From assembly GCA_964106915.2 (NCBI GenBank), contig OZ066923.1: a stretch of DNA of 64,000 nucleotides. The stretch is one strand, 5' to 3'. Positions 46,382-62,292 of this stretch are shown here, piece by piece. Position 1 is the first letter of the stretch. Every line of letters starts with the position of its first letter. Below the pieces are notes generated by a model. The model ran no database searches, had not been told where the DNA came from, and saw only the letters and a list, made by a program, of their open reading frames with translations. Source of the DNA: Podarcis gaigeae. Its lineage: Eukaryota. The position numbers and the translations under genes were made by a program.

Positions 46382-46465
46382 ACCGGCAGGAGCTGATGTT
46401 GGAACATTTTCTGGACTCAAGGCTCTTCTCAGCTGGGCATCCAAGTCCTCCAGAGGTTGCTGGGA
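46382..46465 (-). CDS. WNK1: WNK1 exon 21 (SQQPLEDLDAQLRRALSPE...)
   Basis: Conserved motif; cag acceptor, gtaagt donor. Confidence 0.93.
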
Positions 46466-56528: not shown

Positions 56529-57751
56529 CTGGAACACACAATTCTGTTATTCAAGATGAGAAGTAAACAGAATGGAAGAGAATGATAGCTGTAGATGGGC
56601 TGGGAGCAATATAGAGAAGCAGAAAAATATGCATATGAAATTATCAAGAACCACCAGGGGTTTGCCCACAGCCATAAAGGGACCTGAACAAGGCATTCAG
56701 GGGCATGGAGGGTTGAATTCAGTCTTCTCCCATAAAAGTGAAATTTCATATATTACAAGGGGACAGAGTAGTCTGGTTCACACATAACATGAAGCCATGG
56801 TTTACTAAACACAGGCCAGTAGTATACTTATGGTGCATTTAGTGCCAGCAAACCAGGATCTGAAACCATGATTTGTTACTGACTTGCAAACCTTGGTTTC
56901 TTTTAAATATGGCTTTGTGTTATGTGTGAACTAACCACCTTCCTTGACCATGATTTGTCTGGCCTCTCCACCCCAGAAGCTCACCAAGCTAGAAAGATAT
57001 GAGAGCAGCTGGAAGGAGGTGAACTTGGGGAAAACAAGCAACAGTTTGATTGTCTACGTGACAGCTCATAGTTTGTTAAATGAACCATGGCTTAGCGCTG
57101 TGTGAATAAAACCATTCTCTCCCCCCCGTCCCCCCTCACACACATACATACACAATCTTAAAATACGGTGGAAGCTTGATGGGGACACGATAGTTGCACA
57201 ACTCAATATATGCCATCTTAAGCAAAACAAACAAACAAACACAGAGAAACACAATAGTATAACCCAATGTAAGAATTTAGGACAAAAAAGCATCACAGGA
57301 GAACAATTTGTCAAGAGGTTAGAACAGTGACTGAATTCAGATATAATGAGAAACCTTGGTTTGTTGTTATGAAGAGGGGCAGAGACAAGCCCTTGGCTCA
57401 TACACTCCCTCCTCCCCTTCCACTGCATGCAAAGTGAGATATGAAGCTTTAGATTCTACTCAATAGCAAACCAAAGCTTACCTACAAACCTGGATCAAAC
57501 TATACTTTATAATGCTGGTTTGAGCAAATCATAGTTTGCTGTTAACTAATAAGCAACATTTCTAATCTCCTCCCCTTGCATGCAGGACAATGGGAGGGGA
57601 GAGCACTTAAGGCCAAGATTTTTGCGAGTTTTTTAGAGTCTAATAAACTATGCACTAAAACAGAGGTTTTAAAACACAGTGGACTGATTCAGATGTAACA
57701 CTAAACCATAATTCAGTACTATACAGTGCAGTATCACCAAAAGAAACTCAC

Positions 57752-57914
57752 ATTAAGAATTCTCAGTTTGGGACGTGTAGTCTTCTCATGCCGAGAGCGG
57801 CTGCGCACTGACTTCCGATAATGCCGTTTCGTAGTCCTCCCTTCATGTCTACCACTAGATGCTGGAACACTTTCATTGCAGTCACTTAAGCCTGAAGCAA
57901 CATCTGAATGTGCA
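57752..57914 (-). CDS. WNK1: WNK1 exon 14 (AHSDVASGLSD...RSRHEKTTRPKLRILN)
   Basis: tag acceptor, gtgagt donor. Confidence 0.96.
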
Positions 57915-58483
57915 CTACAGAAAAACAAGTAGGGAAAAAAGCAGCCATTTTTACCTGTAATCCCCCCCCACTTCCTTTCCATGCTGAGTATCACTCTCAG
58001 CAAATCAAGGAATGTAAGTAAAATGCTCTTTAGAAAATCCTACCACTACATGCTAATAAAGATGATTAAATCTGCACTAGTGAAATGAGGCTCAAATGTG
58101 TTTTTTAATTAGTCATTAAATGCCTCTCTTGTATATTTCATCAGGAGTTTCCAAACTGTGGTTTGTGGACCACTACTAGTCTATGGCCTTCATTCAGGTG
58201 ATCCACAGCATGTTTGTGGATTTGTGGTTGAACGGGGAAACAGTACTTTTCATTGCCTTAAACGTTCATAATGTATTGATTATTACTTGTATGTTCATTG
58301 CTTCTTTTATTTCTTATATTTTATATTACAGTTTTAATTCCACAGACTTCAAATTGTAATACATGCAACACCCGCCCCCTACACACATTCAATACATGTG
58401 CATCGAGCCAAACCCGCAAGGGATGTGTGCAGTAACTCAGAACATAACCCTGCAAAAATGGAGGGTTGCCTTACAAGAACATA

Positions 58484-58703
58484 CAGTGGGTGCTCGGGTT
58501 GCGAACGTGATCTGTGGGGGAGGCACGTCTGCAACCCACAGCCCCGCGTCTGCGCAGGTGCGGTTGTGTTTTGGAGCTTCTGCGCATGTGCAAAGCACAA
58601 GCGCCGAAACCCGGAAGTAGCCCGTAGCAGTACTACTGGGTTTCGGCGCGTCCGTAACCTGAAAATGCGCAACCTGAAGCGTCTGTAACCCAAGATAGGA
58701 CTG
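58484..58703. mobile_element. Tigger-like MITE, probably nested in an older hAT element (about 58142-58865)
   Basis: TA-CAGTGGGTGCTCGGGTT and AACCCAAGATAGGACTG-TA ends; CpG-rich. Confidence 0.7.
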
Positions 58704-59277
58704 TACAATGTATAAGAAGTACAAGAAGCAATTAAATGCAATTTTTAAAAAACATACAGCACCTTCCGCAGCACATTACAATTTCTATAACAAGCATAAA
58801 AATAATTAAGCAGTTCACCAAGACCCTCACCAATTTTCTGTAGGGGGGAAAGTTTGGGAATCACTATGCTACATGCTTTAAGGAAGAGTCGCCTTTTGAG
58901 TCACTCACAGGAAAGACACAGGCCATTTTTAATAGGGTGCTGCAACAGGTAAGGTATAGTTAAGTTAGGACATTATGAGCCTGGTACAACTAGTGTCTGA
59001 GCAGCCTTGCTGTAATTCAGGAAAGGAGTAATCAGCTACAATTAGAGATGGGTAACCTGTGACCCTCCAGAGGTCTCATCAGCCTCAGCCAGCATGGCTG
59101 ATTGTCAGGGATGATGGAACTGGAGTCAAACAAGTTCCATGCCCCAGCTTAGATGTCAAGGGCAGATGTTAAGAGTTCACATGCGAAGAGTCCGCCCAAA
59201 TCAGAAACAGATTAACAGAAGCACCATGTCTGTAATGATAACTATTCCAAGTTGAAATGCAATAATTTACTATTTAC

Positions 59278-59378
59278 CTATCTATTGAGGAAACCAATGG
59301 GGTTGATTGCGAAGGCTGCTGCTGCTGCACTGGTGGTTGAGTCTCTGCAGGTGCTGTTTGAGTAACTCCAGAAGTACT
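59278..59378 (-). CDS. WNK1: WNK1 exon 13 (STSGVTQTAPAETQPPVQQQQPSQSTPLVSSID)
   Basis: cag acceptor, gtaaat donor; phase 0-2. Confidence 0.88.
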
Positions 59379-60041
59379 CTGCAAAAGATAAAGCATTCCC
59401 TTCATGCATCTTGTTAAAGAGCTCTTTTTCCAGCCCCATCACAGTCCATCCATCTAGGTAACTAGAAGCTGAAAAGCACACTGTTCTCTCTAGAACATCT
59501 TAAAGCATCTAAACATTTCAAATTTTTAACCCCAATTGAGGTTTTCGTGCAAATTTGAAACAAGTTGCCTGGTGAAAGTCAACCATTTTATTTACTACAT
59601 GATGGTGGCACTACAGCTTGCCATGCAACCAGAAATCTTACTAGCAGAATGTGCAACAGAGAAGCCAATGCAGAATGCAAAGTCCATTCAAATCTCCCCC
59701 AGCTACAGCAAGGCTGCAGGGAACACGTTTGAGGAGAGATTTTTTTCCAGTGACTGTTGAGTATAGCATGTCTTCAATACAATGATTGGCATTACTAGCC
59801 AGAAGAGAAGTGCTAGCAAGTGTTTTGCATCTTGGGAGGCCCACTCACTTCCCAACAGCATAGCCAGGGGCAACAAGGTCTCCACATTGGCATCACATTC
59901 TGCTGTAAGAGAAATTCATTTTGACGATTAGCATATGATTTTTCAGCTTGCTACCCCCAAATGGAAGTGAATTTAAAATTCATGCCCTGAAACTCAGTTT
60001 TTTAGAATGCACACACACAGCAACATGCATAGTCCATTTAC

Positions 60042-60317
60042 CTCTAATGCTGTCTGCTGGGAAGCTGAAGATGAGACCTGCTGAGCTAAACAGGAAGCAG
60101 GCTGTGGCACTTGAACCTGTCCGCCTAGACTGCCCAAAGAAACTAAAACATTCTGCTCCACATAAGGCTGTACCATTGCGCCAAGATAGCCTGGCTGAGC
60201 CAGTACATCTGTGGGTAAGGGAGGGGATAGTACTGCAGAAGGGAGGCAAGCAGAGGCCACAGAAGAAGCAATGTTTGAGTCTCCAGTATATTGTGCTGAT
60301 AGCCGAGGTGGGAAGCC
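60042..60317 (-). CDS. WNK1: WNK1 alternative exon 12 (GFPPRLSAQYTGDSNI...SQQTALE)
   Basis: Homologous to the human proline-rich exon 12; cag acceptor, gtaaat donor; TGCATG just downstream. Confidence 0.93.
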
Positions 60318-61009
60318 CTGCGATAAATGAGGAAGCCAAGTTATTGTAATTTAGGGTAATTCAGGGGGAAACAGTATGAAACAGATAGGGAGGGAGGGAA
60401 AGCAAGGCAAGCTGCATAGGATTTTTAACTCCCTCCTGCCATGAACTCCTTAGATTTGCTGCACAACTTCCAGGGTAACTTGTTTTAAAAAGGAACAAAG
60501 CCTACTTGCCTTGGGGTCAATGTTAAATCCCAAGCCATCATGCACTCTGGAACAGCAGTGCACCACACAACTAAAGGGACCTTAAAGCAACCTGTGTACT
60601 AAAAAGGTCCTCCCTGTCCTGTTAACTATAAATGCTCCATCAAGTTACCAGGTCTGCAAAGAAGCTGTCAGATGACCAGGCCCCAGTCAAGTCAGAGCAA
60701 CAGGGCTCCATCTCTTCTAATGCCTGCTTGCCAGTCTCTTTCCAGAGACAAAAAGAGAGGTTTCACTTGTTATTTATTTTTGTTGTGCTGTCTACTGAAG
60801 ACAAGTTCAACATGTTTCCCTAAAATTGGAGCATGGGAAATCTGTTTGCTTGCCATGTGTATATCATGGTGCTTCCGCATCTTTCACAATTTACCGTATT
60901 TTTCGCTCTATAACACGCACATCGTTTTTAGAGGAGGAAAACAAGGGAAAAAACATTTTGAATGAAACAGTGGATGTATCATTTTTGTGCTTCATGCTGT
61001 GGCCACAGA

Positions 61010-62005
61010 CATGTGATCTGATGGTGAATTTGGGCTGACCCAATGCAAAAATCCTGAGAATCCCTGTGCATCCATGGTTTGTAACCACATTTTTGCACCA
61101 TTGCAGCCCCAGGCAACAGTGGGTGCGTGATTTTGGGGGGGCAGGCTGTAGCCATGGACATGCTATGTGCTCTGATGGTGAATTTGGGCTGACCCAATGC
61201 AAAGACCCTGAGGATCCATGTGGATCCATGGTTTGTAACCACGTTTTTTCACCATTGTAGCCCCAGGCAACAGTGGGTATGTGATTTGGGGGGGGGCAGG
61301 CTGTAGCCATGGACATGCTATGTGATCTGATGGTGAATTTGGGGTGACCCAATGCCAAAATCCTGAGAATTCCTGTGGATCCATGGTTTGTAACCAAGTT
61401 TTTGCACCATTGCAGCCCCAGGCAACAGTGGGTGCGTGATTTTGGGGGGGCAGGCTGTAGCCATGGACATGCTATGTGCTCTGATGGTGAATTTGGGCTG
61501 ACCCAATGCAAAGATCCTGAGGATCCATGTGGATCCATGGTTTGTAACCACGTTTTTGCACCATTGCAGCCCCAGGCAACAGTGGGTGCGTGATTTTTGG
61601 GGGGCAGGCTGTAGCCATGGACTTGCTATGTGCTCTGATGGTGAATTTGGGCTGACCCAATGCAAAGATCCTGAGGATCCATGTGGATCCATGGTTTGTA
61701 ACCACGTTTTTGCACCATTGCAGCCCCAGGCAACAGTGGGTATGTGATTTGGGGGGGGCAGGCTGTAGCCATGGACATGCTATGTGATCTGATGGTGAAT
61801 TTGGGGTGACCCAATGCAAGGATCCTGAGAATCCCTGTGGATCCATGCTTTTTAACCACATTTTTGCACCATTGCAGCCCCAGGCAACAGTGGGTGCGTG
61901 ATTTTTTTGGTGCAGGCTGTGGCCATGGACATGCTATGTGGTCTGATGGTGAATTTGGGGTGACCCAATGGAAAGATCCTGAGGATCCATGCTTTGTAAC
62001 CACAT
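61010..62005. repeat. 154-bp minisatellite, about 6.4 copies
   Basis: GATGGTGAATTTGGG recurs at 61020, 61174, 61329, 61483, 61637, 61791 and 61945. Confidence 0.95.
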
Positions 62006-62125
62006 TTTAAGTGGGGAGCGAAGGAAAAACAAAGAAGGGGCATTAGAGGGGTGTGCAGAGAAGCAGCTGGCTAAGAATGCAGGAGAGGGATTTAACGGGA
62101 GGGAGGAAAGAAAGGCAAAAGTTTC

Positions 62126-62292
62126 NNNNNNNNNNNNNNNNNNNNNNNNNNNNNNNNNNNNNNNNNNNNNNNNNNNNNNNNNNNNNNNNNNNNNNNNNNN
62201 NNNNNNNNNNNNNNNNNNNNNNNNNNNNNNNNNNNNNNNNNNNNNNNNNNNNNNNNNNNNNNNNNNNNNNNNNNNNNNNNNNNNNNNNNNNN
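62126..62292. other. Assembly gap (N run)
   Basis: Run of Ns inside the transposon. Confidence 0.99.

Follow-up and report, generated by a model that had tools for sequence, protein, structure and literature searches.

The window, a stretch of 64,000 nucleotides from the lizard Podarcis gaigeae, holds the 3′ part of lacertid WNK1 on the minus strand, and a Podarcis muralis WNK1 isoform aligns over its positions 63768-30262. The gene is mutated in two disorders, familial hypertension and hereditary sensory neuropathy, and its product regulates cell volume and salt transport. With exon numbers that we take to follow the human convention, the alternative exon 12 lies at 60042..60317 (minus strand; 98% identical to P. 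muralis WNK1 P0001) and exon 13 at 59280..59378 (minus strand). The two meet in a phase 0 joint across an intron of 663 nt; exon 12 is joined to exon 13 in a contig of RNA run X7, and exon 13 to exon 14 in runs X23, X1, and X7.

At the start of exon 12 (60317-60288, minus strand), the window reads RLSAQY, compared with RLPPQY in 138 of the 240 proteins compared and RLPAQY in 46 of them. The PY motif of this exon, which we take to be a NEDD4-2 binding site, appears from these sequences to have been lost in this lizard lineage. Intron 11 contains a tandem repeat at about 60900-62070, visible as repeating ORFs and followed by a 167-base run of N (62126-62292). A 276-codon open frame at 1787-960 (minus strand), containing MYGSARSVGK..., is presumably the start of ERC1/ELKS, a neighbor of WNK1 in other vertebrates.

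The cassette exon and its splice sites

The initial annotation had placed an in-frame, phase 0-0 cassette exon of 54 nt, QNVMPMWRPCCPWLCCWE, in the intron between exons 12 and 13 (59849..59902, minus strand), and our analysis confirms it. The exon comprises 18 stop-free codons between AG and GT sites, its length is a multiple of three, and its phase fits both neighbors; being in frame and stop-free, it is ruled out as a poison exon. On the acceptor side, it begins at a tandem AG (tttctcttaCAG/CAG; ttaCAG/CAG), and on the donor side it ends in the near-consensus GAA/GTGAGT. By an approximate splice scoring matrix, the donor (GTGAGT, 59843..59848, minus strand) is the top of the 36 GT sites in the intron, and the cassette AGs rank second and third of 36. 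Of the splice signals originally described, the acceptor and donor stand, and the donor is identical in a bird locus described below, but the branch-point-like GCTAAT (59927..59932, minus strand), a candidate branch point, is not kept at the aligned bird position.

The Cys/Trp composition of the exon proves little alone: among 1092 in-frame, stop-free AG..GT pairs in the WNK1 introns (27,653 nt), 17 have at least three Cys and at least two Trp. The cassette is outscored on splice sites by one other intronic pair (39244-39137, minus strand); this 108-nt in-frame, stop-free segment (FPVENWFVQLTQKATPCPQQSSGASLPISVAIADWQ) may be chance or another unlisted exon. A 57-nt in-frame segment at 45935-45879 (minus strand; ILLATTCINPGCWPCWLGL), Cys/Trp-rich and with a good donor and a weak acceptor, is probably chance. 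What carries the case for the cassette beyond chance is its conservation, with 49 of 54 bases and the same splice sites kept in the bird, together with 22 predicted spliced isoforms.

These isoforms were found among 295 long WNK1 proteins with the start of exon 14, a set selected for similarity to the lizard, with many reptiles and birds and without human or mouse models. The 22 carriers represent two reptile orders and five species (three lacertids and two sea turtles). The cassette follows exon 12 in 21 of them and exon 10 in one, and 21 of 22 contain the kinase N-lobe motif. P. muralis isoform X15 (XP_077791271.1), the one carrier among 115 proteins, splices the cassette between exons 12 and 13; further carriers among cluster members are P. 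muralis X14, one isoform of Lacerta agilis, and six of Zootoca vivipara. In P. muralis X11, exon 10 is joined to the cassette. The turtle reading is QNVMPMWGPCCHWLFCWE, in eleven isoforms of Caretta caretta and one of Natator depressus. A 17-residue form through the second AG had also been proposed, but all 22 isoforms use the first AG and carry the 18-residue form. These RefSeq predictions have the same exon and boundaries as our cassette, with 18 identical residues in lacertids and 15 of 18 in turtles, but they are automated only and attach no name, tissue, function, or RNA structure to it. Within the set compared, the cassette is missing from all bird, gecko, iguanian, and 11 mammalian models.

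The initial annotation had taken the exon as novel and did not recognize it from mammalian WNK1 isoforms. The second part stands, as the exon is missing from the human and mouse exon list given in PMC3365125 and from the 11 mammalian models, but its novelty is reduced because automated RefSeq models of P. muralis (XP_077791271.1, XP_077791270.1), L. agilis (XP_033018714.1), Z. vivipara (XP_060135957.1), C. caretta (XP_048684788.1), and N. depressus (XP_074795097.1) already include it. When 1.84 billion representatives were searched by phmmer with the 39-residue open frame, there were no matches at E<=0.001, for which the shortness of the query is the probable reason. Of the 24 candidates scored in a region search with the spliced isoform, two came back, both from P. 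muralis; this search covers cluster representatives only and missed the turtle isoforms, so it is no proof of absence elsewhere. We found no description of the exon in the accessible full text on WNK1 (including the available part of PMC10721184), a search that left most subscription journals and splicing databases outside, and the cassette peptide motifs and "WNK1 exon 12a/12b" likewise returned no papers in a full-text literature search. An erythroid link, guessed from the turtle models, had no supporting paper in the literature search and was set aside.

Conservation and use of the cassette

Scanning metagenome contigs by pattern brought up one bird locus, L001; its exon 11, once translated, matches a hoatzin WNK1 model at 100% identity. 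Identity between lizard and bird is 91% in the cassette, compared with 77% in exon 12, 64% in exon 13, and 40-43% in plain intron. In the upstream part of the intron, translated comparisons gave no sign of conservation. The lizard-bird differences in the cassette are two synonymous and three replacement changes (pS 0.24, pN 0.07, both from small counts), and its halves are equally conserved, with 20/22 bases kept in the 5′ half and 29/32 in the 3′ half. The latter lies outside the long stem described below, and a local hairpin could also constrain it. The initial annotation had proposed conservation of splice sites and cysteines in other genomes as a check, and both are kept far beyond the lacertids. 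The same peptide occurs in a galliform-like genomic read-through ORF (P0072) and, with Val6 for Met6, in a read-through ORF judged crocodilian-like from its exon 12 (P0005). Residues W7, P9, C10, C11, W13, L14, C16, W17, and E18 are invariant in the lizard, turtle, bird, and crocodilian-like sequences.

Two mammal-like read-through ORFs, P0044 and the bovid-like P0322, cross the cassette in a shifted frame and give the same shifted-frame peptide. When the cassette frame is considered behind P0044, 17 of 18 positions are compatible with the lizard or turtle residue, and the best of 127,437 other window segments reaches 12. In this mammal frame, position 3 would be Glu, the donor is probably GTGGGT, and the C10-C11 pair is compatible; TGA is ruled out at all six conserved Cys/Trp codons, and stops are possible, judged from the protein alone, at codons 1, 15, and 18. 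The cassette is conserved in lizards, turtles, and birds, and these frames suggest that it is likely conserved in mammals too.

Use of the exon was examined in four of 24 listed RNA runs, aligned to 57650-60500, two of them (X1 and X7) as contigs, which drop minor forms. Inclusion junctions, which the initial annotation had proposed to look for in lizard RNA, were seen in none of the four (X23, X21, X1, and X7). The raw reads of X23 included nine from exon 10 to exon 13 and eight across exons 13-14, with zero depth on the cassette, so that inclusion was 0 of 9 informative reads (95% upper bound of about 28%); the X21 reads did not cover exon 13. The X1 contigs joined exon 10 to exon 13 at a depth of 305 and X7 joined exon 12 to exon 13 at a depth of 61, and in both runs, the cassette was covered by unspliced contigs only (depth 4.5-8). 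Skipping from exon 10 to exon 13 agrees with the pattern reported for exons 11 and 12 in PMC3365125. Skipping is what the reads contain, and inclusion appears in the 22 automated models only. Together, these findings indicate that the exon is real in the sequence and almost certainly spliced, very likely in some tissue. We conclude that the WNK1 cassette is real, deeply conserved, and rarely included, and that it sits in automated reptile annotation, yet we found no description of it.

Low-depth unspliced contigs of X1 and X7 extend over the cassette-bearing intron (59372-60429), and most of the next intron has none; this intron may be spliced slowly or retained. The intronic contigs also contain five sense-strand A-to-G differences (59783, 59934, 59941, 59974, and 60003) against two T-to-C. 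The A-to-G differences may be species differences or editing, which are indistinguishable without matched DNA.

A predicted stem over the cassette acceptor

An arm at 59880..59910 (minus strand), which runs from the last part of the pyrimidine tract over both AGs into the first 23 exon bases, is complementary to a conserved intronic block 175-215 nt downstream of the cassette (59636..59675, minus strand), and the consensus fold of the lizard-bird alignment pairs these two arms, which share a perfect 11-nt inverted repeat (I3). All 30 pairs are kept in lizard and bird, compared with 37-45% in slid controls, and the four one-sided changes and one two-sided change (G-C to C-G) between them all keep pairing. 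A covariation test on the two sequences was not significant, as one two-sided change was reached by 240 of 500 shuffles. The duplex energy is -39.7 kcal/mol in the lizard and -34.0 in the bird, matched by none of 500 dinucleotide shuffles in either. The downstream arm is the best partner among 3338 gene-body windows, and the pairing is the strongest of 20 acceptors tested. At 59675, the X1 and X7 contigs (depth under 5) carry a change that turns a G-U into a G-C pair and brings the helix to -41.8. A search of 59300-60100 against Rfam gave no matches at E up to 1.

When the lizard intron was folded, the nine lizard-register pairs tested had probabilities of 0.9-1.0, and the fold z was -2.64 for the lizard region and -1.46 for the bird region. 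In the bird, the acceptor favors a local hairpin with the 3′ half of the exon itself (about 0.7, compared with 0.25 for the long stem); the energy of this hairpin is -15.4 in the lizard and -23.9 in the bird, and the AG is covered by both structures. Ordinary acceptors are also mostly paired in such folds (exon 13, 0.02-0.42 unpaired). We think it probable that the stem is functional and masks the acceptor. Conserved pairing over an acceptor predicts skipping by default, which fits the RNA runs, where no inclusion junction was seen. Second of the 20 acceptors tested is that of another WNK1 exon near 46465, where 46475-46443 has a partner about 200 nt downstream (46255-46206, minus strand) at -36.9 kcal/mol.

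A TGCATG (59622..59627, minus strand) is located 8 nt beyond the stem, at 222 nt from the exon on its downstream side. It is a candidate binding site which we take to be an Rbfox-type motif. It has an aligned copy in the bird (L001:2758, 219 nt downstream); enrichment of TGCATG in the intron is weak (P of about 0.04), with one of three copies conserved. Rbfox RNA bridges offer a parallel for a duplex with TGCATG beside its distal arm. The conserved stem and the conserved TGCATG, both missed by the initial annotation, are predicted to explain the control of the exon best.

The downstream arm overlaps a conserved block of 72 nt (block B; 59642..59713, minus strand) that looks like an exon but is more readily taken as non-coding. 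We rejected it as a second coding exon of the intron (PCCSWGRFEWTLHSALASLLHILL): it has a stop at codon 5 in the bird, its pN of 0.22 stands against a pS of 0.30, and its motif is in none of the proteins compared. Its lizard-bird identity is 55/72, its donor-like GTAAG is the complement of the cassette acceptor, and it may act as a poison exon.

Conserved complementary regions are described in PMC8052449 as tending to obstruct inactive and cryptic splice sites. The WNK1 stem resembles them in being an intramolecular duplex over a weakly used splice site, here with a conserved TGCATG beside the distal arm, but differs in that its arm covers both the acceptor and the coding bases of a frame-preserving exon. 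WNK1 is absent from the text and five supplements of that paper; its three large catalogue files, which lay outside this check, may list the pairing. Cysteine-rich optional exons and splice-site-masking stems are both known kinds of element, and what is new here is the predicted conserved RNA mask over the acceptor of the WNK1 cassette.

The peptide and its possible roles

The 14-residue core of the cassette scores as the top membrane-interface window of WNK1 on Wimley-White values, at -5.4 in the lizard (next window -3.1) and -7.3 in the turtle (next -2.7). The peptide lies about 80 residues before the CCTL2 domain, and no other Trp occurs within 150 residues on either side. Its invariant dicysteine, C10-C11, is placed in WNK1 by an alternative exon, with basic residues scarce beside the cysteines and no adjacent polybasic patch. 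We found no Pfam family and no usable look-alike in the ESM Atlas. All Cys and Trp codons begin with TG, so selection at the RNA level could create this composition.

Alternative WNK1 exons listed in PMC3365125 are 8b, HSN2, 9, 11, 12, 26, 26a, and 26b, and 10.1101/2023.10.28.564535 adds exon 26c, of 27 nt, near the 3′ end of the gene. Like these, the cassette preserves the frame and falls in the disordered tail, where the known optional exons are tissue-biased, but none of them lies between exons 12 and 13. The peptides of two optional exons of the 26a/26b region, at 36888-36796 and 33766-33728 (minus strand), are likewise rich in Cys and in part hydrophobic (GCVKFNC...STPCLALW and KMVKKVCPCNQLC). 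With the cassette, this makes at least three Cys-rich optional modules in WNK1.

The initial annotation had likened the cassette to exon 4a of KS-WNK1, a comparison that comes down to composition, with 130-774 of 1000 shuffles scoring as well in all 14 comparisons. We rejected homology between the cassette and exon 4a, whose alignments score no better than shuffles, and also homology with the 26a/26b region, to which the cassette shows no likeness. Exon 4a (PMC6014176, PMC12321387) is likewise a short optional exon of this gene with clustered Cys and bulky hydrophobic residues. The cassette could similarly change where WNK1 is located. Exon 4a, however, is an N-terminal exon that replaces exons 1-4 from a kidney promoter and yields a kinase-dead protein, whereas the cassette is internal and occurs in kinase-containing models; exon 4a sets six Cys around five aliphatic or Phe residues, whereas the cassette has spaced Trp.

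A precedent for the dicysteine is STREX, an alternatively spliced insert of the BK channel with a palmitoylated dicysteine and a membrane-targeting role (PMC2911306). Both are alternative exons that put a dicysteine into a cytosolic tail, but STREX belongs to a membrane protein and reportedly relies on a polybasic region (PMC3256903), whereas the cassette has few basic neighbors and three Trp. Palmitoylation in the accessible text of PMC9496095 concerns ENaC.

On the STREX precedent, we tentatively propose, as a reading that could well be right, that the cassette is masked by the stem and off by default, and that its inclusion adds a Cys/Trp patch anchoring the disordered tail of the kinase to membranes through interface binding and S-palmitoylation. 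The stem with the intronic arm about 200 nt downstream would form in vivo and block recognition of the 3′ splice site. A factor at the conserved TGCATG, probably Rbfox in neurons or muscle, would lift the block in some cell types. Three Trp and one Leu would then enter the bilayer interface and offer the Cys-Cys pair to a palmitoyl transferase. Kinase-active WNK1 would come to lie at membranes, closer to SPAK/OSR1 and its cotransporter targets, and not only in cytosolic condensates.

The exon could instead be real and regulated with a peptide that acts as a lipid-free hydrophobic sticker, lowering the condensation threshold of WNK1 as exon 4a does for KS-WNK1 bodies. The cassette supplies three of the nine Trp of the 2424-residue isoform, inside a disordered tail reported to drive phase separation (10.1101/2022.01.10.475707), and the cysteines and hydrophobic residues of exon 4a are needed for membraneless WNK bodies (PMC6014176 and PMC12321387). 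The lack of any likeness to exon 4a beyond composition, the spaced Trp where exon 4a has an aliphatic block of five, and a vicinal Cys-Cys whose conservation a generic sticker would not need make this reading unlikely.

A second possibility is that selection acts on RNA only, with the exon and stem serving as a decoy or brake on the splicing of exons 11-13 or on intron retention, and with TG-rich sequence yielding the Cys/Trp peptide as a rarely made by-product. Both exon halves have a pairing partner, the long stem taking up the 5′ half and the local hairpin the 3′ half, and the tendency of conserved pairings to obstruct inactive and cryptic sites (PMC8052449) fits this reading. So do the missing inclusion in four runs, the unspliced contigs over an intron whose neighbor is mostly bare, and the lack of the cassette from the bird, gecko, iguanian, and mammal models compared. 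It is nevertheless quite unlikely in our judgment, because length and frame are kept and stop-free in the lizard, turtle, bird, and crocodilian-like sequences, even though each of the six conserved Cys/Trp codons is one change from the TGA that the mammal frame excludes at all six. Block B, where the constraint is on the RNA alone, acquired a stop, and the models of five species splice the cassette on both sides.

We consider it very unlikely that the stem serves mainly as an ADAR substrate, with A-to-I editing of the tandem AG or of exon codons switching inclusion or recoding the peptide. Recoding sites usually consist of an imperfect duplex, here of ~30 bp, that an exon forms with an intronic arm downstream, and the Val for Met6 of the crocodilian-like sequence would result from A-to-G at a paired A. 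Editing sites are also enriched in conserved complementary regions, according to PMC8052449. Against this, no difference falls within 59880-59910 among the rows listed for the X1 and X7 contigs, which drop rare variants, and all 22 models read the unedited peptide, which says little on editing since they are translated from genomes. Least probable, with only a slight chance of being right, is that the peptide cross-links or redox-tunes WNK1 through metal binding or disulfides: turtles, birds, and crocodilian-like sequences have Cys-Cys-His-x3-Cys, and lacertids have a fourth Cys but no longer the His, so that four possible ligands are kept, but three adjacent ligands fit one metal site poorly, neither Pfam nor the Atlas holds a counterpart, and the conserved Trp spacing is left unexplained.

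The cassette provides a direct test of how WNK1 might shift from cytosolic condensates to membranes, and the stem offers precise mutations and antisense targets for switching the exon on. The WNK1 isoform catalogue in PMC3365125 aimed at exhaustiveness, yet the conserved cassette is not listed in the part available. Should the cassette be used in mammals, it would be a missed coding exon in a disease gene, and a variant in the intronic control arm could switch it on. The broadest reading is that all amniotes, humans included, carry a stem-locked WNK1 exon that is opened in one cell type to give a palmitoylated, membrane-anchored, kinase-active WNK1, switching the kinase between membrane and condensate signaling. 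We regard this as unlikely; if true, it would place a splice switch in a gene of hypertension and neuropathy.
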